From a virus (taxonomy: Duplodnaviria > Caudoviricetes): a stretch of 64,000 nucleotides of DNA. Positions 3,586 through 23,615 of the stretch are shown piece by piece. Every line of letters begins with the position of its first letter. Positions within the stretch are counted from its first letter, which is position 1. The stretch covers positions 1,338 to 65,337 of the IMG/VR virus record IMGVR_UViG_3300033067_000991; one strand, written 5' to 3'. The notes beneath the pieces were generated by a model, which searched no databases, had not been told where the DNA came from, and saw only the letters and a list, made by a program, of their open reading frames with translations. The position numbers were made by a program, and so were the translations under genes.

Positions 3586-6500
3586 TCACTGCAACATCCG
3601 CCCAAAGCGCCGCTCAATCGTCTCGGTCAACTGGTTCTTGCGGGTCTGTAACCGGTCCAGTTGCGCGCGCTTGGCGGCGCCGTCTTGCGGGCCGACACGA
3701 ATCGCCTGCATGCGCCGGTTGATGTCGCTCAGGTCCGACGCTGCCTTGTTGTAAGCGCCCTTGAGGTTGAGCGGGACGCGCTTGTCCTTCAGCAGGTCCG
3801 CGACTTTCTGTGAGTCGCCCATGCGCCGCGCATGATTCAGGTCGGCCTGCGCCTGCTGTACGACCCTCAAATGATCGTAAAACAGCGAACTGTAGGCCGT
3901 CGAGCGCGGGATATCCGCATCCGAGAACGCCCGCACGAAGTCGCCAACGATGGGTATGGCGCGGATATCGGCCGGCTTGTCCGGAGCGCCGCTCAGGCCG
4001 TCCAGCACCAGATTGGACCCGGCCAGCGCCAGCGCCCCCAGCCAGCCCATGTAGCCTTCGATCAGGCTATCAATCTGCACGGGCGAGAGCGGCGTCTGTT
4101 GCCGGCCAAAGGTCAGCGTGTCGAACACGGCATCCAACCCTTGCGCCATGCCAACGCCGACATAGCTGGAGTCGGGCGTCTTGCGGTCGGCCTTGGAGAG
4201 CCGCTCCATGCCCATGCCCTCGATGGGCCGGCCCGTGAAGCTGTCCCGGTTCGCGTAGACATCGAGCATGGGTTGCATGGCCTGCGGTATCGGGTTGATC
4301 GACAGCGTATCGCCCAGGGCCGCATAGAGCCGGTCCAGCCACAGCGTCTTGGGCACTTCGCCGTAGCGCATGAACTGCTCAAGCGTGCGCTCCGCCATGG
4401 TGGCCAGCACGCCCATCTCGAACGGCCGGGGAATCTTGTACAACTGCCCGCCCACCTTGAAATAGTGGTAGCTGTCACGGCGCCAGTCTTCCAGTTCCTT
4501 GTAATCGTCGTCATCAGCCAGGGCCATGTAAGCCAGCAGCGACAGGCCGATATAGGCGCCCGTGACCGTCACAAACTGCTTGCGGGTGTTCTCATCAATG
4601 GCCGACCGGGCGAGCTTGTCCAGGCCCTGCAACCGCGAATTGAAGAACGGCACCACCCGCGCCATGTTGAACAACAGGTGCGATGTGCCGCGCATCTGGA
4701 ACGGCATCAGGTCGTTTGCCTCAAAGGCCGCGTCCAACAGCGAGCCGGTTTCGGCAAAGGTCTTTCGGAAAGCCGCTGCGCGGTTGACGTTTTCCAGACG
4801 GGCGCCGCCGGCCTGGTACTTGTCCCATAGCGCGGACAGTTGATCCCACGACCGCAACAGGATGGCGCCATCCCGGTCTGGCTTCGAGCCCAGCTTCAGC
4901 AAGGCTTTGGCATTGGCGCTGGCCGGATTGCCCTCGCGCAGATAGCCGGCTTCATGGATGCCAAACAGGGCGCCACTGCTGACCATATCGGCAAAGGCTT
5001 GCAGCTCCTGCATGGTGCGCGGCTGGGTAGCTTTCCAGCCGTCCAGTACCGCCCGTCCCGGGGCTTGGCTCACATTACTGGTCGCCAGCGCCTGAATGGA
5101 ATCCCGAATCAGGTTGCGCGCCCGATAGACCGGACTGGCCGTGACCCCGGCCCGCAGCAGTTGGGAAAACTTGCTCATCAACTGGATGGCCGGCGATTGC
5201 CAGCCGGTGTAGTGCATACCTTCCAGCGCCTCCCAGACCAGCTTGGCGTCGGTGCCCGTGCCGATCTGGTTGTAGTAGACCTTGCGGCCATCCTGCCGGA
5301 CCCACAGCGAACGGTCGGTGGCCTGCGCTTCCGGCACCCGCTCCGCCAGGCCCATGTCCACCGCCAAGTCCAGCGCCTTCACCGCCGCCGCGTTATGGGT
5401 TGCGGTATGCGCCAGGTGGTGCCAGTTGCCCAGCACGTTCGACAGCAGGTCGTTGAGCGGAATCGCTGACCCCTTGTACTGCTTGAACGCGGTTTGGGCG
5501 TCCAGGCTCCCCAGGTCCGGCAGGCCGCGCCGTCGGGCCGTCCCGTCCTCATCCTGCAGGAACCGGTAGAACGGCACGTAGACGCCCTCAGAGCGCCAGC
5601 GTTCGGCGTCCTCGGCGGAAATGGTGCCAGACTCGACATTGAGCGCTACAAAGGCATCGTTCAGCCGGTTGAAGTCCTCAGCCGCCTGCCGGTATACCTG
5701 CGCCCGGTCCCGCCCATCGACCATGGTGCCCTGGTCAAAGGTCAGAGACGCAGCAATCGTGTCCTCATCCAGGAACCGTTCCCGAATCCGCGCCGCACGC
5801 TTGGCGGCCTTCAGGTCACGCTCAGCCTGGGCAATCTTGGCTTGGATGGCGTCCCGATGTTTTTGGGTAGGACGATCCGGTAGTTGTGTCGGCAGGTCTT
5901 CGATTTCCTGCTCCAGAATCTGCACCATATCCGCCGCCGCATCCGCCTTGCGGTTGATACGGTCGGCCCGCTGCGCCGCAACCCAAATCAGGAAGTCGTT
6001 GATCTCGCCGCCCAGCGTCTGATTGAGCTTGTCCAGCGGGGTTGCGCTCAGGTCGGTCTTGATGGCGCCCGAAGCATCCCAGGCCGGCGCCCCGAAGTGC
6101 ATCGCCGCCACCACCGCCCCTTCCGACTGCGCCGCCAAGCGGGCCTGCTTCCACAGCTCCGGGTCTTTCAGCACATCGCGGAACGACCGGTAACGGTCCA
6201 CCACCTTCTGCGCCCAAGCGGTTTGCCAGTGGTCTACCGACTCCTCAACCCGTTGCCGCAGCGTCTTGGTATGCAGCGTCTGTCCTTCGGCGTATTTGTC
6301 CTTAACCGCCTGCTGTTCGGGGGTGTAGGCGCGGGAGAAGCGGATATCCGGGGTGTCTGGCGAGAAGGCGCCGGTGTTGCCGATGGCGGATTTGATTTGG
6401 GTGGGATCGAACGCGACCCAGACATTAGACGGGATGCCTTTCCCTTCGTAATCATCCCGCACATTTTTAAGCAGTACGCCGTCTAATTCGTCATCCTTGG

Positions 6501-9500
6501 CCTCCTCCATGAGTTCCGTGAAGGATTGGTCCTCATAATTGCCGCCCTTAAAGTCGTGCCGCAACGGGTCGGTGATGTTCAGGTAGACAGGATAAACCGT
6601 GGCGCCACCGCTAATAATCTGCTCTTTCACATACCTGTCCAAGTTCGCCTCAGCCGCCGCAAGCTCCTTCTCAGCCTTGGCTATTGCGGTTGGCACAACG
6701 TCAGTGCCGAAGGCCGCAAGCGCTTCCTGCTCCGTGTCAAAGTAAACGCCAACCCCCCATTCGTAGGTATTTTCGTCGCCAAACTGGGTGTACTCGGTAA
6801 TTTGCAGCACGTAACCCTGCTCGTCCTCATCCCATACCGCCTCTCCTAGATTGACGCCATCAAGCCATTTCTCTAGCTCTGCTTGAGCCACATCAACACG
6901 GTGAGCGGGACCGCCCAACGGGGAGTTCAGTACGTCGGCCGAGTTGTACGAATCAGCCACGGCCGCGCTATCCGAGAAAAAGAATCCGTGTTCAGCAGAC
7001 GATGCGCCGGTGCGCCATCCCAGCTTGGCTTTACTGAATGCCTTGATACCTTCCCGCCCATCGGTCAACCTGGTTGGCCCGCCGTGATATACCACCAATG
7101 GCCGCCCCTGGTCGTCCACCACTCTGGAATCCCCAAACCAGCGCCAGAAATTCCGCATCCCCTCCTCGGTCGGGTGAATCGGCTGGCCGTTGCTGTTGGT
7201 CGTCGGCCGCTCCACGCCGTCCACGGTGATGGTGCCTTTGGCGCTCCGGCTGAACTTCGCCGTAATGGTCACATCCGTATCGGAGAAGAGGACATAGTTC
7301 GACTTGCCCTTATTGATGCTGCCTTCCGCCGGGTAGCGGATACCGCGCACGCCGGCCTGATGCAGGGCCGCAGACGCATTGGGCTGGCTTCCGGTGGAGG
7401 CCGCCAACTGGTTGTAGACAGCCTCGCCGGTAGCGCGGGGATCGTCGCCAAAGCCCAGGCTCGCCAGGGCCGCGCGGACCTTCTCGGATTGCTGACTGAG
7501 CGGCTTGAAGTAGTCCATGTACTCATCGGCCTGCGGCGCCAGGTCCACCTGATACAGCCGCCCACCGCCCGGCTTGCCGCCGGTGCCGCGATACAGGTCG
7601 GCAATGAACCGCACATCCGAGAAGTACAGGCCATGCCCAAAGCCCTTGCTCACGCCCACGGACTGCGCCTTGCTCAAGCTGAACCTGTCGAACAAATGGA
7701 TAGACCCATGCCAAGCCTGATGGAACTTCGGCCCCTGCAGCTTGCTCAGCTTGGCCGTCCCGCCCTCGGCATACGCCACCAGCGCCTGCGCCAAGTGTTC
7801 GCGCAGCGTCTCGATATCACGGAAGTAGTCTGATGACCCAAGCCCGCGCTGCATCAACTTGTCGGCGGCTTGCTTCAGCCACTTGATCACGGCATTCAGC
7901 AGTTGCTTGAACTTCGACGGGCTAGCCTCAGCCAGGCGCTGCACGAACGCCGGGTCAGCCAAAAGATCGCCAGTCAGGTCGGCCAATAGTTCCTCCTCGG
8001 CCGCGGCCTTGTTGAAGCGGGTTTCCCCGGCCTGCAACAGGCTGTTCAATCGGTCCTGGTATTCCGCGAAGTTCTGATAGTGGCCGCGCGCCTGCAGGGC
8101 GAACCAGTGGTACAGGTCCGGCCGCTCGCGCTTTAGCTGGTGGAGGATTTCGTGGCCGGTGACGTTGACGAAACCGACGTTGGCGTTGAGGTTGACGAAG
8201 TGGCGTCCACCGACGTTGATGCCGTTGAACTGGTCGAATCGGGGGTTGGTGGCGGTGATTCCAATAACCTCCGCATCAAACGCTGCCTTTGCCGCGGCGG
8301 CAAACTCAGCAAGAGATTCAGGCAAATCCCGTTGGACATAAGCGGTGTTCCAAGCGTTGTTTTTGAATTGCCGTGCCAGCGACCGATTGAGCGCTTCGGC
8401 CTTGGCCTGATTGGCGGCCAGGGGCAAGCGGAGCGGGGGCGACTGGGGGGCATTATCGGTGGCGCGTTTGAAGCGAGTTTTGCCGTCGCGATTCCGCCAT
8501 GTCGTATCAGGAGCATCAACCGGCGAGTCTAATATCTCGCCAAAATACAACGCCCCGCTCTCGCGATGCGCATCCGGCATTGGCGTTGTTGTGTGCGCGG
8601 ATGCTCCGCGCCGCACTACGAGCGTGAGTCCGTGCTGGTCGGCGAATCGTTGGAAGCGCTTGGGTACTTTAACCCTGGCCGGACCGCGCACCACCGCCCG
8701 ACCATCATCCAATATCTGGAAGGTAATGGCGCGCCCAGTATCTTCCAGCCGCACGGCATCACGACGTAATGCGCGCAGGGCGGCTTTGTCGATAGGGGCT
8801 GCCCTGGGGTTATTGGGGGGTACTGCATATTCATAGGTTAGCGCATTGTTGGGCGCAGTGCTGGACCGGCTGAATTGTGGCGCATCAGTCGGTACGCCAT
8901 CCAGCGCCTCCAGCAAGCGATCCACATCACGCATCGCCACATCCAGGGTCATGTGTACCTGCGCCGGCACCGGCCGGATGGCGCCGCTGTCGACGCCTTC
9001 GCGCAAGCGCTGCATGACGGCATCGAAGGCGACATACTGCCCGTTGCCCAGCAACACATCGCCGGGCCGCTCATCCGCATGCGCCAGTTCGCGCAATTCC
9101 TGTTCGGCCTGGCTGAGCGTTGCTACCGCGCCTGAACCGAAGCGGGGGCGGTTGGTGGTTCCGCCGGTCCATTCGCCAGCGGTATCGGCCAGGTCCGCCT
9201 GGCGGTTGTCGAGCGCAAAAATGCCCTCATCGGCAGGCGGCGCCTGCGTGGCGTTGCTCTTCCGCTGTTGCTCCTTCTGCGCCTCGATCAGCGCGAGTCG
9301 GTCGGCTTCGGCTCTGGTGGCGGCGTCTGCGGCGGGGAAGAGGTCGCTGTCAGTTGTTGCAGCGCTTGTTGTGCTTCCGCGGTCAGCGGTTCCTTGCGGA
9401 GCATCGACCGGAACAGGCTCACCCCGCCCGGACTGCGCCATATCTGCTTGGCTGCTGCGTCCATGGTCATTCCTCAGTCGGTTCAACACATCCTGACGGG

Positions 9501-12500
9501 TGGCTCGCGGCACCGCCTCGAACATATCCGCGTCAGGCTTGAAGGCTTCATTGTGGGCAAAGTCCGCGACATTGGCCAGCGCCTCGATCACGGCCTTGTT
9601 GCTGCGCGGGTTTTCCGCGAACAGTCGCAACACTTCGCCCACGTTGGGATCGGTATCCAAGTCGAGCTGTTGGGCTACCTGCTGCACGGTCAGTCCACGG
9701 CGCCGACCATTCACCAGCATCTTGCCGGCTTCCGCCACAATGCTCCGGATATCCAATGCCCCGGCGCCCTCCAGCTTGGCCATCTTGGGCGCTACCTTGG
9801 CCAGGGCCGACATCACCAGCCGCGCTTCAGGATCGACGGCTTGCGCATGCAGCCGCACCAATTCCTCATCACCATACGCCTTGTGGAAGACCGCGGCATT
9901 GAGTCGGTCATAGGCTTGGCGGGTCGGCTGTCCGTTGCTGTCGATCAAGCCGCCTTGTTCAGCGGTCGGCATGGCCCGGACAAACTGCGTGACCGCCTGC
10001 CGATTGATGACGCCATCATCGTCAAAGGCAATGCCGTCCAGCGCAATGCGCGCGGCATCGTTTTGCGCCTGTTCGACCGGCGACAGCGTAAGCGTCCCGG
10101 CGATGTTCGATTCATCACCAATGTTCGGCGTCACGTCGCTTTCCGCCATGACGCGCACCAGCACCGGTTGGCGCAGCATGTTGATCACGCCCGGCTTGAT
10201 GCCATGGCTGGCCGCATCCTTCACCAGTTCGGCGCGGTAGTCCTTGGCCGTACCTTGTACATAGGCTTTCTGCAGGCCCGCCACTCGCCCATTCCCGGCA
10301 ATCGCCCGGGTGGCCGGCGTGGCAGCATCGCCATACGCGGCATTGACGGAACCATCGGCCTGGTTGGACGGCAGCAAGGCGCTGGCCTCAACGACGGCGT
10401 AGCGGGTCGGAATCCGCCGACCGCTGGCCGTAACGGTGGTTTCCTCGCGGCCCATCTGCCGCTCTTGAATCTGCCCGCCCGCCACGACCGGCGCCCCATT
10501 GGCGAAGTCTCGCGAAGGGCCAAGGCGAATGTAATCAGGCTGGGCTGCAATGCTCTGCATTTGCTGAATCGCCGCTGGGGTGGAGCGGTCGCGGTTCTGC
10601 AGGATGGTGGCTGGGGCGGATGGCTGGACCGGCGCCACGTCTGACATAGCGCTGTCCGGGGCCACTGCGGGCTTCTCCAGCACCACCATGCGCGCAGCCG
10701 TACCGGTCGTGTGGGTTTCCGTGCGATCCAGGAACGACCCATCCGGCAGTTTCTCGGCGCTCCCGCCGTGCTCATCGAGCCAGTTGCGGAATTGGGTCGC
10801 CGCCTTGTCCGTTCCGAAAAACACCCCCTCGCCGGCAATCGCCACGAGCTTCCCGCCGGGCTTCAGCAGGTCGTAGGCGCGCATGATATGCGCGGCGTCC
10901 TTGCGGTCGGTGCCCTTGCCAAAGGGCGGGTTCATGATGATGCGGTCGTACTGGGCGCCGGGCTGGTAGTCCTCAAAGTCATGCCCGACCAGCGGATAGC
11001 CCTTCGCCTCCAGTACCTTGCGCAAGGCTTCGGACACTTCCACGGTATCCACTTCGGCGCCTTTCGCCCGCGCCGCGTCGGCCAGGCTGCCCTTGCCGGC
11101 GGACGGTTCCAACACCTTCATGCCCGGCTCGATGCCCGCCACATCCGCCATACGCGCCGCCAATGGCTGGGGCGTGGGGAAGTAGTCAATGCCGACTTTT
11201 TGCCCGGCCAGCGCCATTTCCGCCGCCTTGACTGGATCGATGCTCGCCTTGCCCGCCTTCAGTTGCGCAAACTCGCGCACGGCGGCTTGCAGGTCGTCGG
11301 TGCTCTGGATACCGGCCCGCTGCAACCGGGTGATGTCCTGCATATTGCGCACGGCCAGCCAGCCGACCGCGCTTTCTGTCTCCCGCTTGCCCAGCACCTT
11401 TACCAGGCTGTTGTACAGATCCGGCGTCAACTGCTGACGATTGACCTCGGGGATGAGCTTTTTCCCGCCGCGCACCGCATTCAGCTTGCCCACCAAGCCC
11501 GGCACCCAGTCGCTGCGGATGGTGGTATCGGGCCAGCCTACATGCTGAAACTCAGACTCTGCATAAGGCTCGCTGCGGCGCTGCTTGGATTGCTCATAGG
11601 GCAGCTTCAGGACGCCCTCATACCGAGTGCGCGCATCGCGTAACACCCCGTCCAGCGCCTCAATCGCCGCCTTGCTGTTGATGCCCGCCAAGCGCTGCGC
11701 CTGGCCGTTCTCGATGGCATCCGCCAGGTTGGTCATGGTCTTGGCCAGCGCCTCATCCTGCGCGGCGCTATTCAAGGCGCTGGCGGCCATACTGGCGCGC
11801 CGGGCGGTATTGGTGTTGCGGTCGGCGTCTTGGGCGGCCTGCGCCCGCGTCAACAAAGTACCAGCCGTTTGCCGCAGCTTCGCGGCATTCCGGCGTGGCC
11901 GCTCGTCTGCCCGCGCTTGCAGAACTTCGCCCACGGTTTGGGGGGTGGGCGTAGGCGCCGGCACGGTGGCGCCCGTATCGACGCCGGCAGGGGCCGGCTC
12001 CGCAGCGTTTTGCGCAAACTTCTCCCGAATGAAGAACCCACCGTCCTTCTTGAACATGAACGGGTCAATGCGACGCGCCTCCTGCGCGGTGAGATCATTG
12101 CGCACAACACCGCGCAGCGTTTTGCCCTTTGCGGTGGTGTGCTCAACCCATTGCGGCGATTCGCCGGAATGGGTTGCCGGATCATTGACTGGTGCGGCGC
12201 GCGACTGCGCGGAGAGGGTCTGGGTGGCCTCCCGTTCCTGGCGCATCTTCAGGTAAGTGCCCAACAGCAGCTTCGCTTCCCCTGTCTGCCTCGCACCTTC
12301 GTTGCTCACTGCCGCGCCGGTTCTACGCGAGCCTTGGCCATCAAACTCATCGTCGCGCCACAGGCGGGCAATCTGCGCGTCCATCCTTCTTATTTCCGCC
12401 TCTAGTTCCGGCAAGCTCTTCTTGCCGTACTTGGCGTCCATGTCGGCGTACAGTTCTTCGTTGGCCTGCGTAAAGCGCTGCTCGCGGGTCAGGAGTTGCT

Positions 12501-15336
12501 CGGGCGGGGTCTTGCTCCACACTTCCTTTGCCGACTGCAAGGCACTGTCTTTGCTGTTTGCGATCAGCCAACCCCCGGTTGGGGATGTCTTGTATTGCCA
12601 ACGATCCCTCCATTGACGCAGTAGGCCAACGTCGGTGAGGTCGGACTCGTTGGGTTCGGTTGGCGCAGTTGCCGAGGATTCTTCGGGTGCTACCGTCGGC
12701 TCCTGACCCGCAACCGGCGTTCGGGAATCCGCAACCGGCGCCCCTGGTGCCTGGTCCGATTGCTGGCTATCCTTGACCTCCAGTACCGACATCCGCTCCG
12801 GCGCAACGCGCACCGTGCCGTCTTGACCGTCTAGTTGAACCTCAACCCACGGCCGACCGGACGATGTACGCAAGACGTTGTGAACCGTACCATCGGCGGT
12901 TTGTCCGTTGCCTACATCAACCTGCACGCGCGATTGGAACCAGCGGTGTTCGGGCCAGGCTTCGCCTTTATCAGCGGCCTCAACCCATGGTTGGGTCTGC
13001 GGCTTTTCCGCTAATGACTGTCCAGTGACGCCACCATCACCACCTGGCCCAGCCTGGCCCGGTGTCTCTGCAACAGTTCCAGCAGTTCCTCCGTCAAGAG
13101 ATCCTGAAACTCCCCCCGTAAGCGGTTCTCCAGCGTCTCGTGGTCCGTCAGCAGTTCCTGGTAGCGCTGCCACAGGTCCAGGTACATCTTCTCTAGGGCT
13201 TCCCTCGGGACGTGCGGCATAGTCGGCTCCGGTGGGGTCGGTAATCTCAGGCGCTACCGCTGTGGTTCCGGCGGCGTCCGGCGCACTGGCGACATCGCCC
13301 GGGGCGACGTTGGGGTCCGGCTGTTCCGGCGTGGCGGTGAGCGGTCCAGCGCTTCCGGGTACTGCGTCCGCAGTTTCGCTAAGGGGATTTTGGGCATTCG
13401 GCTGTTCCTGTTCGGGTTGTGGTGTAAGGGCGGCTTGAATCTTGTCGCGCAAGCTGCGGTGAAACCGTAGGGTATTCTCGGTTTCTTGCGTACCAGGCAC
13501 GGCAATGCCGGCCTCGCGCAGCCTTCCACGCACCGCCTCGGCGCCGCCCAGGGCGTCCACATTGGTAATGCGAAAGACGTTGTTCTGATCGTTCTCGGTC
13601 AGGACAGGGGCCGGGACGACCGCCGGAGCTTCCGCCCCGGTGGTCGCGTCGGTCAGCGGCTCAGCACTTCTTGCCGCCGCCGCCTTTTCCGGGCTTTTTG
13701 GACTTAGCCATGAGGGTTCCTCAGTGGGGGTGACAGCGCTTAACGGCGCACTGGGGGCCGGTTCTTCGGTAGTCGGCTCAGGGGCCGGAGCGGTCGGTTG
13801 GGGCGCGGCTTCGGGCGCATCGGTAGCCAAGCCCGGACGGGTGCCCAGCAGTCCAGCGGATGAGGCCAGCCCATCAGCCGGCGGCGTGGCCGGCTTGGGC
13901 GCTGCGGGTTCCGGCGCTACTGCGGCCGGCCCGGCGTCCACCACGGGAAGATTTTCCGGCATCCCGGGCTGGACGTTGGCGAGTCCTGCGGCGACTGCGG
14001 CGCCAGGGTCTGTTGCCCCAGCCGTTCCAACAGGCTGACGATCCCCACCAAGCATTCCAGCGTCACCGCCTGCTGTTGCAGGATCACGCTGTTCTGCTTG
14101 AGGAGTAACGCCAGTTCCTGGTTGCTGGCCGGGGATGAATCCGGTGAGGGGGTCGAAGCCGGGGGCTTGTGGCTGAAATGCTGCTGGATTCGGGAGAGTA
14201 GCGACATCGGGGGCTCCTGCGTAAGAAGATGGCGGAAGCTGCTGCCAGGCCGGCGGCACAAACGGTTGGCCCAGCGTCGGTTGCTCCGGCGCGACGGGCG
14301 GCAGACCAGCGGGAGTCGGCTGCGGACCAGTAACAGTCGGCGTGGGCGGTATGTCTGCGCCTGGCTGCGCGCGCGGTTGCATGGCGCCACCAGCCCCGCC
14401 GACCAGCCCGCCACCGACCGCGCCCATAGCGGCCGAAATGCCGTATTCGTTGAGCGCGTCCGGGGTCGCCAGCGGCATGCCACCGCCCCAGCGCTCCAAG
14501 GCGGTCTGCGGGATTTCCGTGGCGCCCTCCACGATGGCGGCCTGACCTGCTTGCTTGGCGATGTTGCCCAAGCGGCTGGCGCCCTGCGGCAGATATTCGG
14601 TGACGGGCAGCGCCACACCAGCGGCCTTGCCGAATAGAGGCTTCAGCACCTTGCGGGCCGCGAACAATTCGCCAGCCGTATCTAGGGCCGCCGCCGGCAG
14701 CGCCGCCGTCAGCGCCCGGCCCTTGTCATCGAGACCGGTGTCCCGCTGATTCGCCCGCGCCTCGCCATATTCCATCGTCACATTCGGTACGAAGGCGCCG
14801 CCGATACCGCCTAGCACGCCGCCCACGGCGGCACCCGCCGGGCCGGCGAGCCCACCAGCCATCGCCCCCAGTCGGGCGCCCGTGAAGGCGCCCGCCGCCG
14901 ATACTGGCAACTGCGCGGCCAGTTGCCCGGCCGCTTCGCCCAGGAAGGCGCGCGGCTTGGCCACGATATCGCCCATGGTCTGTATGGCGCTGGGATTGGC
15001 TTGCTGGATCGACTCGCCATACTGCCGTACCGGCTGCCCCAGGTCCGGCGCCCCGACATCTTCGAGCACCGTCCCCAGGGAGGCGATACCGGCTCCGGTC
15101 ATGGCCTTGGCCGACCGGCCCAGCGACTCGGCAAAGCCGGGGGCGGGGGGCGGTTGCGTGGGCTGCGGCGCAAAGCCGAAGTGGGCGCGCACGTCTTGCA
15201 CCAAGTCAGCAGCCGGGGCCGTCTGCGCAAAACCGAAATGCGCCCGCGCGTCCTGTATCAGGTCGGGGGCAATGGTCGGCGCCGTTCCGCCTAGCCGGGT
15301 AGCATTGCGTTGCAGGTCATCCGGGTTTGCTGCCAT
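3586..15336 (-). CDS. Giant (3916 aa) polyvalent virion/ejection protein: N6-adenine MTase, ddrB-like ParB, HExxH metallopeptidase, two ART-like domains, LPD38
   Basis: VLEPSAGKG and IIMNPPF; ILQNRDRS..IAGNGR; HEILH..EELLAD; AWHGS..GHGLYFS; NFWRWFGDS.VVD..GRPLVVYHG; DWRRDSY..IPRPFEMG..NRDSFTGRPIE. Confidence 0.92.
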   Translation of the reverse strand: MAANPDDLQRNATRLGGTAPTIAPDLIQDARAHFGFAQTAPAADLVQDVRAHFGFAPQPTQPPPAPGFAESLGRSAKAMTGAGIASLGTVLEDVGAPDLGQPVRQYGESIQQANPSAIQTMGDIVAKPRAFLGEAAGQLAAQLPVSAAGAFTGARLGAMAGGLAGPAGAAVGGVLGGIGGAFVPNVTMEYGEARANQRDTGLDDKGRALTAALPAAALDTAGELFAARKVLKPLFGKAAGVALPVTEYLPQGASRLGNIAKQAGQAAIVEGATEIPQTALERWGGGMPLATPDALNEYGISAAMGAVGGGLVGGAGGAMQPRAQPGADIPPTPTVTGPQPTPAGLPPVAPEQPTLGQPFVPPAWQQLPPSSYAGAPDVATLPNPAAFQPQAPGFDPLTGFIPGQQPGTGVTPQAEQRDPATAGGDAGMLGGDRQPVGTAGATDPGAAVAAGLANVQPGMPENLPVVDAGPAAVAPEPAAPKPATPPADGLASSAGLLGTRPGLATDAPEAAPQPTAPAPEPTTEEPAPSAPLSAVTPTEEPSWLSPKSPEKAAAARSAEPLTDATTGAEAPAVVPAPVLTENDQNNVFRITNVDALGGAEAVRGRLREAGIAVPGTQETENTLRFHRSLRDKIQAALTPQPEQEQPNAQNPLSETADAVPGSAGPLTATPEQPDPNVAPGDVASAPDAAGTTAVAPEITDPTGADYAARPEGSPREDVPGPVAALPGTADGPRDAGEPLTGGVSGSLDGGTAGTVAETPGQAGPGGDGGVTGQSLAEKPQTQPWVEAADKGEAWPEHRWFQSRVQVDVGNGQTADGTVHNVLRTSSGRPWVEVQLDGQDGTVRVAPERMSVLEVKDSQQSDQAPGAPVADSRTPVAGQEPTVAPEESSATAPTEPNESDLTDVGLLRQWRDRWQYKTSPTGGWLIANSKDSALQSAKEVWSKTPPEQLLTREQRFTQANEELYADMDAKYGKKSLPELEAEIRRMDAQIARLWRDDEFDGQGSRRTGAAVSNEGARQTGEAKLLLGTYLKMRQEREATQTLSAQSRAAPVNDPATHSGESPQWVEHTTAKGKTLRGVVRNDLTAQEARRIDPFMFKKDGGFFIREKFAQNAAEPAPAGVDTGATVPAPTPTPQTVGEVLQARADERPRRNAAKLRQTAGTLLTRAQAAQDADRNTNTARRASMAASALNSAAQDEALAKTMTNLADAIENGQAQRLAGINSKAAIEALDGVLRDARTRYEGVLKLPYEQSKQRRSEPYAESEFQHVGWPDTTIRSDWVPGLVGKLNAVRGGKKLIPEVNRQQLTPDLYNSLVKVLGKRETESAVGWLAVRNMQDITRLQRAGIQSTDDLQAAVREFAQLKAGKASIDPVKAAEMALAGQKVGIDYFPTPQPLAARMADVAGIEPGMKVLEPSAGKGSLADAARAKGAEVDTVEVSEALRKVLEAKGYPLVGHDFEDYQPGAQYDRIIMNPPFGKGTDRKDAAHIMRAYDLLKPGGKLVAIAGEGVFFGTDKAATQFRNWLDEHGGSAEKLPDGSFLDRTETHTTGTAARMVVLEKPAVAPDSAMSDVAPVQPSAPATILQNRDRSTPAAIQQMQSIAAQPDYIRLGPSRDFANGAPVVAGGQIQERQMGREETTVTASGRRIPTRYAVVEASALLPSNQADGSVNAAYGDAATPATRAIAGNGRVAGLQKAYVQGTAKDYRAELVKDAASHGIKPGVINMLRQPVLVRVMAESDVTPNIGDESNIAGTLTLSPVEQAQNDAARIALDGIAFDDDGVINRQAVTQFVRAMPTAEQGGLIDSNGQPTRQAYDRLNAAVFHKAYGDEELVRLHAQAVDPEARLVMSALAKVAPKMAKLEGAGALDIRSIVAEAGKMLVNGRRRGLTVQQVAQQLDLDTDPNVGEVLRLFAENPRSNKAVIEALANVADFAHNEAFKPDADMFEAVPRATRQDVLNRLRNDHGRSSQADMAQSGRGEPVPVDAPQGTADRGSTTSAATTDSDLFPAADAATRAEADRLALIEAQKEQQRKSNATQAPPADEGIFALDNRQADLADTAGEWTGGTTNRPRFGSGAVATLSQAEQELRELAHADERPGDVLLGNGQYVAFDAVMQRLREGVDSGAIRPVPAQVHMTLDVAMRDVDRLLEALDGVPTDAPQFSRSSTAPNNALTYEYAVPPNNPRAAPIDKAALRALRRDAVRLEDTGRAITFQILDDGRAVVRGPARVKVPKRFQRFADQHGLTLVVRRGASAHTTTPMPDAHRESGALYFGEILDSPVDAPDTTWRNRDGKTRFKRATDNAPQSPPLRLPLAANQAKAEALNRSLARQFKNNAWNTAYVQRDLPESLAEFAAAAKAAFDAEVIGITATNPRFDQFNGINVGGRHFVNLNANVGFVNVTGHEILHQLKRERPDLYHWFALQARGHYQNFAEYQDRLNSLLQAGETRFNKAAAEEELLADLTGDLLADPAFVQRLAEASPSKFKQLLNAVIKWLKQAADKLMQRGLGSSDYFRDIETLREHLAQALVAYAEGGTAKLSKLQGPKFHQAWHGSIHLFDRFSLSKAQSVGVSKGFGHGLYFSDVRFIADLYRGTGGKPGGGRLYQVDLAPQADEYMDYFKPLSQQSEKVRAALASLGFGDDPRATGEAVYNQLAASTGSQPNASAALHQAGVRGIRYPAEGSINKGKSNYVLFSDTDVTITAKFSRSAKGTITVDGVERPTTNSNGQPIHPTEEGMRNFWRWFGDSRVVDDQGRPLVVYHGGPTRLTDGREGIKAFSKAKLGWRTGASSAEHGFFFSDSAAVADSYNSADVLNSPLGGPAHRVDVAQAELEKWLDGVNLGEAVWDEDEQGYVLQITEYTQFGDENTYEWGVGVYFDTEQEALAAFGTDVVPTAIAKAEKELAAAEANLDRYVKEQIISGGATVYPVYLNITDPLRHDFKGGNYEDQSFTELMEEAKDDELDGVLLKNVRDDYEGKGIPSNVWVAFDPTQIKSAIGNTGAFSPDTPDIRFSRAYTPEQQAVKDKYAEGQTLHTKTLRQRVEESVDHWQTAWAQKVVDRYRSFRDVLKDPELWKQARLAAQSEGAVVAAMHFGAPAWDASGAIKTDLSATPLDKLNQTLGGEINDFLIWVAAQRADRINRKADAAADMVQILEQEIEDLPTQLPDRPTQKHRDAIQAKIAQAERDLKAAKRAARIRERFLDEDTIAASLTFDQGTMVDGRDRAQVYRQAAEDFNRLNDAFVALNVESGTISAEDAERWRSEGVYVPFYRFLQDEDGTARRRGLPDLGSLDAQTAFKQYKGSAIPLNDLLSNVLGNWHHLAHTATHNAAAVKALDLAVDMGLAERVPEAQATDRSLWVRQDGRKVYYNQIGTGTDAKLVWEALEGMHYTGWQSPAIQLMSKFSQLLRAGVTASPVYRARNLIRDSIQALATSNVSQAPGRAVLDGWKATQPRTMQELQAFADMVSSGALFGIHEAGYLREGNPASANAKALLKLGSKPDRDGAILLRSWDQLSALWDKYQAGGARLENVNRAAAFRKTFAETGSLLDAAFEANDLMPFQMRGTSHLLFNMARVVPFFNSRLQGLDKLARSAIDENTRKQFVTVTGAYIGLSLLAYMALADDDDYKELEDWRRDSYHYFKVGGQLYKIPRPFEMGVLATMAERTLEQFMRYGEVPKTLWLDRLYAALGDTLSINPIPQAMQPMLDVYANRDSFTGRPIEGMGMERLSKADRKTPDSSYVGVGMAQGLDAVFDTLTFGRQQTPLSPVQIDSLIEGYMGWLGALALAGSNLVLDGLSGAPDKPADIRAIPIVGDFVRAFSDADIPRSTAYSSLFYDHLRVVQQAQADLNHARRMGDSQKVADLLKDKRVPLNLKGAYNKAASDLSDINRRMQAIRVGPQDGAAKRAQLDRLQTRKNQLTETIERRFGRMLQ
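9288..9464 (-). CDS. Candidate overprinted small protein in the +1 frame of the giant gene
   Basis: GAGGA 6 nt before ATG; MDAAAKQIWRSPGGVSLFRSMLRKEPLTAEAQQALQQL. Confidence 0.4.
   Translation of the reverse strand: MDAAAKQIWRSPGGVSLFRSMLRKEPLTAEAQQALQQLTATSSPPQTPPPEPKPTDSR
13011..13220 (-). CDS. Candidate overprinted acidic helical protein (69 aa) in the +1 frame of the giant gene
   Basis: GGAG 6 nt before ATG; amphipathic L/E/Q-rich sequence unlike a shadow ORF. Confidence 0.55.
   Translation of the reverse strand: MPHVPREALEKMYLDLWQRYQELLTDHETLENRLRGEFQDLLTEELLELLQRHRARLGQVVMVASLDSH
13917..14207 (-). CDS. Candidate overprinted coiled-coil protein (96 aa) in the +1 frame of the giant gene
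   Basis: AGGAG 6 nt before ATG; NQELALLLKQNSVILQQQAVTLECLVGIVSLLERL heptad pattern. Confidence 0.5.
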   Translation of the reverse strand: MSLLSRIQQHFSHKPPASTPSPDSSPASNQELALLLKQNSVILQQQAVTLECLVGIVSLLERLGQQTLAPQSPQDSPTSSPGCRKIFPWWTPGRPQ

Positions 15337-23600: not shown

Positions 23601-23615
23601 GGATTGGTCGGCCAT
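17679..23615 (-). CDS. 1978-aa virion protein: Pro-rich N-half, conserved hinge, 32-aa helical repeats, Ser-rich tail
   Basis: Long ORF in the late operon; hinge TGIAPAVEQALWDRAR..IAIAQADLEQKNRQFA. Confidence 0.9.
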   Translation of the reverse strand: MADQSKAAEIAGTYIPAALQWLTDGSGPTGLIQVAKDAIAGLGDAMTDIKAYEPPVLPPFAPVTIPEPAPITETIDKSGKPERIPADQLKLNIPNPAPSYTPDNTAITFPDLHAPDPLPSDYGQSLQLGPIPSLTATLKVDASGIAFNPGDAPGQQNYSGAVATFVAPTDPGDAPTPNPIDVTVNPAPVAPPLNASVTVNIPDPPPNPELTTSINVTYPTDPGDAPALSTASYLAPTDLTRPGAPGPVLAFTPPTVPTAPGQPVITRLDQFPEPPTAPTLDSYTADIPTPPDEPGNPGTVTVTEFQPPTAPTLSTASFVAPTTPQSPSVGQVSPYVPPTEPAAPATPVVDTQFPQAPASPSLGQVSVTLPTQPNDPGQPGAVTLTYPDAPTRPTVGTASFIAPTVPTAPVLPNVSGYNPPSTPTAPNLPTIDSNFPAAPTTPTLGTLSVTMPEQPAAPGQAGAVDVTYPAVPTAPTLSSAAFVAPQTPTAPTLPNVSGYNPPTEPSAPNIPAIDSSFPSAPATPILGTLSVTMPEQPAAPGQPGAVDVTYPNAPAAPELGTASFVAPAAPTAPATETVTLPTLPDQPTLEATRPVIVMPERPQMFSGVAPEAPVTVFDGAPEVTIFNQPPITPLPTLEIPTLTWDETMYESDLLRSFNAKLQAWIAGEEATGIAPAVEQALWDRARARTNAETRRLQKAVTRAWSAAGWTMPAPMMANALLQAEQAAVNQNIEESRNIAIAQADLEQKNRQFAFSTALQLETQLMNFTNQMRQRLFEAQRASIELLVQVYNLHVARINAEIAILQAQASVWDTTNKLAFEGARMKLDYERAKVEIFGSRIQAYSTEAQANANQWDAWSKAVNASLWELEAYKVDADVYKAKIDAFRSLVEAKTQLADVDLRIKKFPVEVYSAEIQGYAAMVEAARTKATTELELAKLPLSLYDSQLRGYSAQIDAAKAKADIELALVKLPYEVYDTQIRGYSASVEAAKVRADVDLSLVRLPFELYDTQIKGYATGVEATKAQLESQTTVAKLGIDVYDSQLRAYTAKIDAAVKQVESDIQIAKLPFDLYESQIRGYSAEVEAARTKSTMEIDLAKLPLTLYETQLRGYSAQIDAAKAKADIELALVKLPFEVYDTQIRGYSAAVEATKVRADVELATMRLPFELYDSQIRGYLGEIDATKAQLEAKTTLAKLGIDVYDSQLRAYAAQIDAAVKQVESDIQIAKLPFDLYESQIRGYAAQVEAARTKATTEIELAKLPLSVYEAEIRGYVAQVDGAKARADVELALVKLPFEVYDSRIRGYASAVEAAKVKADVDLAVIKLPFDLYETQIRGYVGEIDAAKAVLESKVSVAKLGIDTYDSQLRAYTAKIDAAIKKVETDIQVTKLPFELYDSQIRGYSAQVDAAKAKTGAEIDLAKLPLSLYETQMRGYGIQVDAAKIKADIDLAMVKLPYDVYESRIRGYASAVDGAKAKIDADLQVIKLPFGLYETKVRGYAANIEAVKAQLDAEVSVAKLDADVYDSTIRGFTAQVDAGVKRVESDISIVKLPYDAFEAQVRGYAAQVDSAKTKAQTEIELAKLPLSRYETQIRGFAAQMEGAKVKADVEIELAKLPLSVYDSQVKGYAAQIDGVKIKADTDLAIVKLPYEIYDSEVKGYASEVDGVKIKADAAVAIERLRFDGFDSQVRAFAAKVDAAKTKAAIETENIKLPFEVYEKQVRGYATRVDAEKAKVGAEVDKQKLTIDGYEAELRGYSAQVDGIAKQADLTLRKAALPLDVYKSNVQGFAAQAQAEASIVSTKADLKKLPVQVFQAEVGAFTGMVEAESRRVQALINAYTGEVGAFKTSIDADVAVIDGHVKIESYKIDSAIKTLQAQVEATKSVLAVVQAKWTSFASVAEASGKIAGNLAASAMSSVNLSASLSDSFGRSASTSTSASTSKSVSTSRSTAQSASSSASNSASNSSVNSTSRSASISGSTIVSGKI
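18180..21000 (-). repeat. 96-bp (32-aa) tandem coding repeats with a 480-bp (5-unit) higher-order period
   Basis: KLG/KLD unit recurs at about 19075, 19555, 20035 and 20515. Confidence 0.92.
21900..22700 (-). repeat. 246-bp (82-aa) Pro-rich coding repeats, each of five ~16-aa subunits
   Basis: F(V/I)AP marker at 21916, 22162, 22408 and 22654. Confidence 0.9.

Follow-up and report, generated by a model that had tools for sequence, protein, structure and literature searches.

In this study, we analysed a 64,000-nucleotide stretch of DNA (the window; positions 1,338 to 65,337) of the 65-kb phage record IMGVR_UViG_3300033067_000991 from IMG/VR, and describe three short open reading frames (ORFs A, B and C) that lie inside a single giant gene of 11.7 kb, on its own strand and in its +1 frame. 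The features of the locus are the following, the coordinates of the three ORFs including the stop codon.

3586 to 15336, minus strand: giant host gene, 3916 amino acids, main frame open throughout
14214 to 14218, minus strand: Shine–Dalgarno (SD) motif of ORF A, AGGAG, 6 nt before the ATG (AGGAG-cccccg-ATG)
13917 to 14207, minus strand: ORF A, 96 amino acids, +1 frame
14012 to 14120, minus strand: helical core of ORF A, approximately residues 30-65, with a +1 coding signature and apparent +1 purifying selection
13227 to 13230, minus strand: SD motif of ORF B, GGAG, 6 nt before the ATG (GGAG-ccgact-ATG)
13011 to 13220, minus strand: ORF B, 69 amino acids, +1 frame
9288 to 9464, minus strand: ORF C, a candidate, 58 amino acids, +1 frame

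Upstream of ORF C the sequence reads GAGGA-atgacc-ATG, with a spacing of 6 nt to the ATG at 9464. An in-frame second ATG at 9470 would give a product of 60 amino acids; because it abuts the SD motif, 9464 is the sensible start. A sequence-only reading of this DNA had placed the three ORFs on one strand in the +1 frame of the giant gene, each with an SD-like motif (AGGAG, GGAG and GAGGA, respectively) exactly 6 nt before its ATG, had described the main frame over them as of low complexity and had regarded them as different from ordinary shadow ORFs. All four statements were borne out: the main frame over A, B and C is rich in Gly, Pro, Ala, Thr and Asp, and the three ORFs are the sole +1 windows in the giant gene with native-like codon usage.

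Codon usage was scored as the log-likelihood ratio of coding versus +1 shadow frame, in bits per codon, after training on 26 other genes of the window, the +1 frames of which score -1.01±0.29 with a maximum of -0.11 (n=1614 windows of 69 codons). ORF B scores +1.10 in the +1 frame and -0.05 in the main frame over it, the main frame of the giant gene as a whole scoring 0.885, and the core of ORF A reaches approximately +1.05 in the +1 frame. ORF C, with 0.38 overall and 0.43-0.69 in 30-codon windows (null maximum 0.09), has the weakest intrinsic signal of the three. Elsewhere in the 11.7-kb gene the +1 frame never rises above 0.2, and the other +1 ORFs of at least 40 amino acids in it all have negative scores (17/17). 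The codon usage of the three ORFs lies far beyond chance, and each of the three codon-signal peaks, which were located without use of start codons, begins at an SD-ATG (chance approximately 2e-4). A longer version of ORF A of 233 amino acids, starting at a GTG, was rejected, since the added part has a shadow-like score (-0.12 overall).

The main frame shows the reverse of this signal. Its GC content at third codon positions (GC3) is 0.74 across the whole giant gene, 0.29 over ORF B and 0.27-0.30 over the core of ORF A; in both places the GC3 of the +1 frame is 0.82-0.83. No such collapse was seen in the other Pro/Ala-rich spacers of the giant gene. As a negative control we used the homologue gp60 of Pseudomonas phage H66, a protein of 3787 amino acids whose annotation describes it as a virion component confirmed by mass spectrometry; its gene shows neither a GC3 dip nor a +1 window above -0.20.

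A diverged relative of the region was found in L003, a 1.6-kb contig of an independent Logan assembly, which has approximately 75-80% nucleotide identity to positions 14250-12700 of the window; a second contig, L004, matches it exactly across their overlap. The product of ORF A matches the L003 protein P0008 (104 amino acids, 57% identity, E 6.5e-18), and in a HMMER search that of ORF B matches P0009 on the same contig (69 amino acids, 65% identity, E 2.3e-19). The main frame of L003 is open end to end, and the two counterparts lie within it as follows.

L003 19-333: counterpart of ORF A, same ATG and same TAG at aligned positions
L003 1102-1311: counterpart of ORF B, same ATG and same TAG at aligned positions

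Upstream of the ORF B counterpart L003 reads AGGAGCCGACCATG, and where the window carries AGGAG before ORF A it has AGGTGATC, which also fits the complement of the 16S rRNA 3' end. The alignment contains a conserved gap-free block that runs from the SD motif of ORF B through its stop codon, bordered upstream by a 33-nt indel and unalignable spacer and downstream by a 6-nt indel right after the TAG. An ordinary shadow ORF of 102 amino acids (13562-13254) is split by a stop in L003. When the observed substitutions were permuted among comparable sites, ORF and ATG stayed intact with a probability of 0.04 for B and 0.058 for A. An assembly error as the source of the ORFs was rejected, their frame structure being common to three independent assemblies.

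The expectation that the frames would be conserved in homologues held in L003 for ORFs A and B, with ATG and TAG kept; a relative of ORF C was looked for in genome, viral and metagenome contigs and none was found. Related-locus and degenerate DNA pattern searches of the same collections gave no further relatives. The search for stand-alone homologues by tblastn, which the sequence-only reading had proposed, was carried out against 50,697 phage records and returned no match for A and only one with an E-value of 7 for B, and HMMER found no credible match for ORF B other than the L003 copy among 1.8 billion representative proteins. The nested products are present in the protein database because the Logan gene caller picked the nested ORFs on the short L003 contig, where it called both of them, together with a 42-amino-acid shadow ORF (880-1008), and not the open main frame.

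The substitutions that separate the window from L003 are distributed differently over the nested ORFs and the folded flanks. In the flanks, main-frame position 3 differs at 0.42-0.53 of sites versus 0.12-0.25 at positions 1 and 2. Third positions of the main frame differ at 15/69 sites over ORF B (0.22) and at 26/94 over ORF A (0.28), compared with 139/305 in the flanks (Fisher's test, P 2e-4 and 3e-3, respectively), which in this single pair amounts to a halving of host-frame third-position divergence over both ORFs. The main-frame GC3 of L003 is 0.20 over B and 0.69-0.86 in the flanks, and because it is so low amid GC-rich flanks the third positions over B are not relaxing towards GC. A or T at these main-frame sites appears to be held, as the second positions of +1 Leu, Glu, Gln, Asp and Tyr codons.

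A placement-permutation test compared how conservative the observed substitutions are for the protein of one frame with random placement, under two nulls, one free and one in which the main-frame codon position is kept. The P values (free / codon position kept) are given below.

ORF B: +1 frame 0.0008 / 0.004; main frame 0.22 / 0.09
ORF A core: +1 frame <0.0002 / 0.0004; main frame 0.90 / 0.30
Two folded-domain control segments: +1 frame 0.87 to 1.0 / 0.21 to 0.88; main frame <0.0002 / <0.0002 and 0.41

The substitutions over ORF B and the A core are placed in favour of the +1 protein, with no such protection of the main-frame protein, whereas the folded-domain controls show the opposite. Synonymous codons among the changed ones amount to 8/16 in the +1 frame versus 2/15 in the main frame for the A core, and to 10/34 versus 6/33 for ORF B; in the main frame of the controls they amount to 37/60 and 24/51. 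The N-terminal 28 residues of ORF A and its Pro/Ser-rich tail evolve as main-frame sequence, and for this reason only the helix of ORF A looks selected.

Amphipathic helices, as suggested by the sequence-only reading, are also what structure prediction gives for A and B. AlphaFold2 (AF2) models the ORF B product as a single helix (residues 6-68, predicted local distance difference test score (pLDDT) 87.6) and the ORF A product as a helix of residues 27-68 (pLDDT 90-96) with disordered tails. In both helices the hydrophobic residues follow a strict 3-4 heptad spacing, with ten a/d positions per product conserved in both the window and L003. Of the 19 amino-acid changes within the helices, only a Phe-to-Tyr exchange affects one of the 20 a/d positions (pooled P 0.005, the positions having been defined post hoc), and in the core of ORF A none of six substitutions does. 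The predicted products of A and B have the hallmarks of coiled coils, namely a long helix with hydrophobic a/d positions.

Taken together, these findings suggest that at least ORF B and the core of ORF A are real nested genes, which we consider probable, though well short of certain. Codon usage, the retention of ATG, SD motif and stop and the sparing that is specific to the +1 frame support the claim that real genes are nested here in the case of ORF B and of the helix of ORF A, but not in that of the first 28 residues of ORF A or its tail. ORF C is a possible third and weaker nested gene, which we put forward tentatively. According to this reading, ORFs A and B would be nested in the +1 frame within DNA that encodes Gly/Pro/Ala spacers, unconstrained in sequence, between folded modules of the giant protein; ribosomes would start internally on the late mRNA at the SD-ATG of each ORF; and the product would be a small protein consisting of one long amphipathic helix, most likely in a coiled-coil assembly. 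Dual coding would be cheap for the giant protein, because the host frame in these parts need only stay open and flexible.

Several points weigh against this reading. All the comparative tests come from one diverged pair (L003, to which L004 is identical) and a few variants from a closer relative, and the heptad test was defined only after the sequences had been inspected. An OLGenie-style dNN/dNS test gave no significant contrast (B, 0.93; A core, 0.66), a result that probably reflects the presence of both nearly invariant and freely evolving parts in each ORF. In sludge-metagenome contigs that are 95-97% identical to the window, 4/5 variants in ORF A are synonymous in the main frame and change the +1 protein, three of them in the Pro/Ser-rich tail, and the variants in ORF B, of which 3/5 are silent in the +1 frame, are no different from those in the neighbouring spacer. 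Apart from the L003 copies, stand-alone homologues of A or B are absent from the 1.8 billion representatives, and the three products could not be assigned to a family in Pfam (best E 0.014-0.06, below the cut-offs) or PHROG (best 0.12 or worse). The main-frame peptide over B, finally, matches the 5051-amino-acid P0003, P0005 and P0006 (53% over 49 amino acids, E 2e-5), and therefore the main-frame reading over B may be old and selected; alternatively, the nested gene may also be present there.

The lengths of the ORFs, and the SD motifs by themselves, are likewise compatible with chance. The +1 frame of the giant gene contains 13 ORFs of at least 58 amino acids that start with ATG, among which the three candidates rank 7th, 12th and 13th, and 13.2±2.2 are expected from a junction-preserving null, that is a synonymous shuffle which keeps the base after each codon. 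In such shuffles the regions of A, B and C remain open in 11%, 18% and 84% of cases, respectively. An SD 4-mer stands at a spacing of 4-9 before 8/121 +1-frame ATGs (6.6%), so that its presence in 3/13 long +1 ORFs has a P of approximately 0.05. Under a naive synonymous shuffle A and B seem unusually open (P approximately 0.04), an effect that vanishes under the junction-preserving null. Similarly, the giant gene has 97 +1 stops versus 119±6 in the naive shuffle, a deficit that is gone when the following base is kept and that arises because codon-junction context is ignored. Naive shuffles exaggerate the significance of alternative-frame ORFs in this genome.

Three other explanations have been considered. 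The first is that the ORFs are frame-shift fossils: the helices would once have been read in their own frame, within an ancestral protein or as a gene of their own, compensating indels or read-through fusion would have turned them into spacer, and they would now be unexpressed. A native-like +1 frame beside a shadow-like main frame would be expected of such fossils, as would the lack of a stand-alone homologue and a main-frame reading of the B segment that is common to the distant polyvalent proteins P0003, P0005 and P0006, and there is a bacterial precedent, since out-of-frame remodelling has been documented for at least some bacterial genes (PMC8788219). However, the substitutions that have accumulated after the divergence of L003 continue to favour the +1 protein, with no comparable effect on the main-frame protein, main-frame GC3 stands at 0.29 and 0.20 in two lineages with no drift to 0.7-0.86, and ATG, SD motif and stop are kept in both ORFs whereas a true shadow ORF is broken. 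In addition, the large polyvalent proteins P0002-P0007 contain none of the A, B or C peptides in frame. We therefore regard fossils as unlikely.

A second possibility is that the ORFs are chance shadows, since a Gly/Ala/Pro/Thr spacer written in A/T-ending codons reads as a stop-poor, Leu/Glu/Gln-rich sequence in the +1 frame. The odd codons might then have another cause, such as the use of rare codons to slow the ribosome between domains, and GGAGCC (Gly-Ala) would provide accidental SD motifs. This explanation accounts for the number and length of the ORFs under the junction-preserving null, for the OLGenie-like result and for the mostly main-frame-synonymous variants of ORF A in the close relative, and it can be read from the sequence that codons beginning with G make +1 codons end in G. 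However, the signal is absent from the other spacers of the giant gene, from a Pro-rich neighbour of 1978 amino acids and from the entire H66 homologue, so that the controls contradict an artefact of composition alone, and chance does not predict the +1-specific sparing, the conserved heptad core or the blocks of conservation from SD to stop. We judge it quite improbable. The third, a nucleic-acid element in which the A-core block acts as a regulatory or processing hairpin of RNA or DNA, is very improbable: the window does contain a long imperfect fold at 14135-14010 (minus strand; -67.3 kcal/mol, z = -5.97, 0/200 shuffles as stable) and divergence there is alike at all three codon positions, but the L003 counterpart has a z of -0.01, compensatory change is seen in only 1/32 consensus pairs, no long DNA inverted repeat was found, the ORF B and ORF C regions have z values of +1.16 and -0.66, and a hairpin leaves the three-base-periodic, genome-like codon signature unexplained.

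Two further candidates were set aside. Long antisense ORFs lie opposite ORF B in the window (12908-13222, plus strand) and in L003 (1024-1317, minus strand). An antisense gene was rejected, as the frames relative to B differ between the two genomes and the antisense score is below the +1 score; these ORFs are a mirror effect of the CTG/CAG/GAG-rich sequence and no conserved gene. The idea that the nested ORFs are out-of-frame copies of another phage gene was also rejected, there being no paralogue in the window.

The giant gene that hosts the ORFs is distantly related in DNA to the PLxRFG giant virion gene of F116/H66-like Pseudomonas phages. Pfam searches identified LPD38 (2.5e-32), ART-PolyVal (6.8e-20) and ddrB-ParB (1.8e-18) domains in its product, in addition to a methyltransferase (MTase) domain; it is a typical polyvalent protein, which combines several conflict-related enzymatic domains with an LPD domain and is borne by a phage. 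P0001 is a singleton, only 5-13% of which is matched by distant giant proteins. No close homologue of the N-terminal 900 amino acids was found in a large protein collection, and a 327-amino-acid main-frame piece had no match among proteins of similar length. The start of the giant gene carries no SD 4-mer, and the SD motifs of the nested ORFs are stronger than that of their host. Late structural genes that start at 23615, 23876 and 28282 on the minus strand also have no canonical SD, with TAGG or TAAG approximately 8-12 nt before the ATG; their upstream sequences are taggcacccgtcATG, taggtatagcccATG and taagcccagcgcATG, respectively.

Polyvalent proteins of 5046-6046 amino acids in ENA (P0002-P0006) share small modules with the window, between which different domains are inserted. 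They have in common with it the module 'QPW...WF.SRV.V...RTSSGRPWVEV', to which P0002 adds a 'VFRITN' module and P0003, P0005 and P0006 add the main-frame reading of the ORF B segment. The segments concerned are residues 796-870 of P0003, P0005 and P0006, about 1000-1107 of P0003-P0006, and 827-894 and 1188-1287 of P0002. These proteins illustrate the shuffling of modules around spacers. A third block of low divergence from L003 (0.15, spread across all three codon positions) lies at 13620-13679 on the minus strand; its main frame reads ...KAAAARSAEPL..., a similar PKKAKAKA..AGSAEPL occurs in P0003/P0004, and there is no +1 codon-usage peak in it.

If ORFs A and B are indeed genes, their translation and oligomerization can be proposed only by inference, and so can their role. 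The products could be accessories synthesized alongside the giant protein that serve as an escort in assembly or packaging or as a neutralizer of its enzyme domains in the producing cell, a suggestion that we make with considerable doubt; an accessory directed at the host, or with an anti-defence function, is about as likely. Look-alikes in the ESM Atlas scored below 0.9 and were uninformative, neither structure-based nor language-model searches gave a lead to function, and the searches turned up no homologue of known function. In a broader and more speculative form, for which the odds seem low to us, the spacers of giant polyvalent effector genes would harbour small genes, and their coiled-coil products would be escorts or antidotes encoded in cis on the same mRNA, which hold the toxin-like ART, MTase or peptidase modules inactive, or fit for packaging, in the cell that makes them. 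The spacers would date from read-through fusions of adjacent module genes, in which the intervening small genes were engulfed. It has been proposed as a rule that, of two overlapping frames, the one nearer to genome codon usage is ancestral (PMC8227390), and since here this is the +1 frame, the small genes would predate the spacer reading, which would be derived. The idea of absorbed small genes matches the asymmetry in codon usage; gene birth inside an unconstrained spacer fits equally, as old de novo genes also gain genome-like codon usage (Sabath et al., reviewed in PMC8227390), which is especially easy where the partner frame is unconstrained.

If the nested genes are real, they would provide a clean natural example of tolerated dual coding, in which the host frame is a spacer that needs only to stay open. 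Gene callers would miss such genes by design, as they lie wholly inside a longer ORF, and the spacers of giant genes could thus conceal small phage proteins, some of which might be partners or regulators of injected multi-enzyme effectors. The combination of a dip in main-frame GC3 with genome-like codons in an alternative frame is a simple and objective scan that can be applied to other giant genes of phages and plasmids.

Embedded genes on the same strand are familiar from lambda Rz1, which lies inside Rz in the +1 frame, and from phiX174, where B lies inside A and E inside D, and these nested genes are translated from the mRNA of the host gene. As in those systems, a small gene with its own SD-ATG would here be located wholly within a larger one in a shifted frame. 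However, the host in the present case is an 11.7-kb polyvalent virion gene, the nested genes are confined to its spacer-coding parts, and its frame has no detectable amino-acid constraint over them. The products also differ, being soluble-looking long helices as opposed to a lipoprotein spanin or a lysis or scaffold protein, and Pfam, PHROG and phage-record searches revealed no sequence similarity between them and nested genes of the Rz1/phiX174 type. The overlapping genes of phiX174 are cited in PMC8227390, which also covers hepatitis B virus (HBV), whose polymerase spacer overlaps preS/S and for which an origin from a short gene between two later-fused genes has been proposed. The likeness to HBV is that a disordered spacer between folded domains co-encodes a protein in a shifted frame, which parallels the idea of an absorbed gene; HBV, however, belongs to another virus world and has no homology to the phage gene, its overlap is far longer and both of its products are experimentally established, whereas the small proteins described here are predictions.

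Similarities also exist with overprinted viral genes in general (Rancurel 2009; Willis and Masel 2018; Pavesi 2013; Sabath 2012; reviewed in PMC8227390): a +1 internal overlap is the commonest geometry, the phylogenetic range is restricted, codon usage reveals the overlap and one partner is disordered, which eases the conflict of dual coding. Unlike in usual overprinting, it is here the nested frame that has genome-like codons and a helical product, and the host frame that is disordered and oddly coded. The domains ART-PolyVal, ddrB-ParB, MTase and LPD38 place the host among the polyvalent proteins surveyed by Iyer et al. 2017 (PMC5512222), a survey from which the words 'overlapping', 'linker' and 'frameshift' are absent and in which 'nested' refers to a hairpin fold only, and the giant gene differs from that of the cultured homologue H66 gp60 in carrying the +1 signal. 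Same-strand nested phage genes are already well known, and what we describe here is no new principle but a new instance of them in a new setting.

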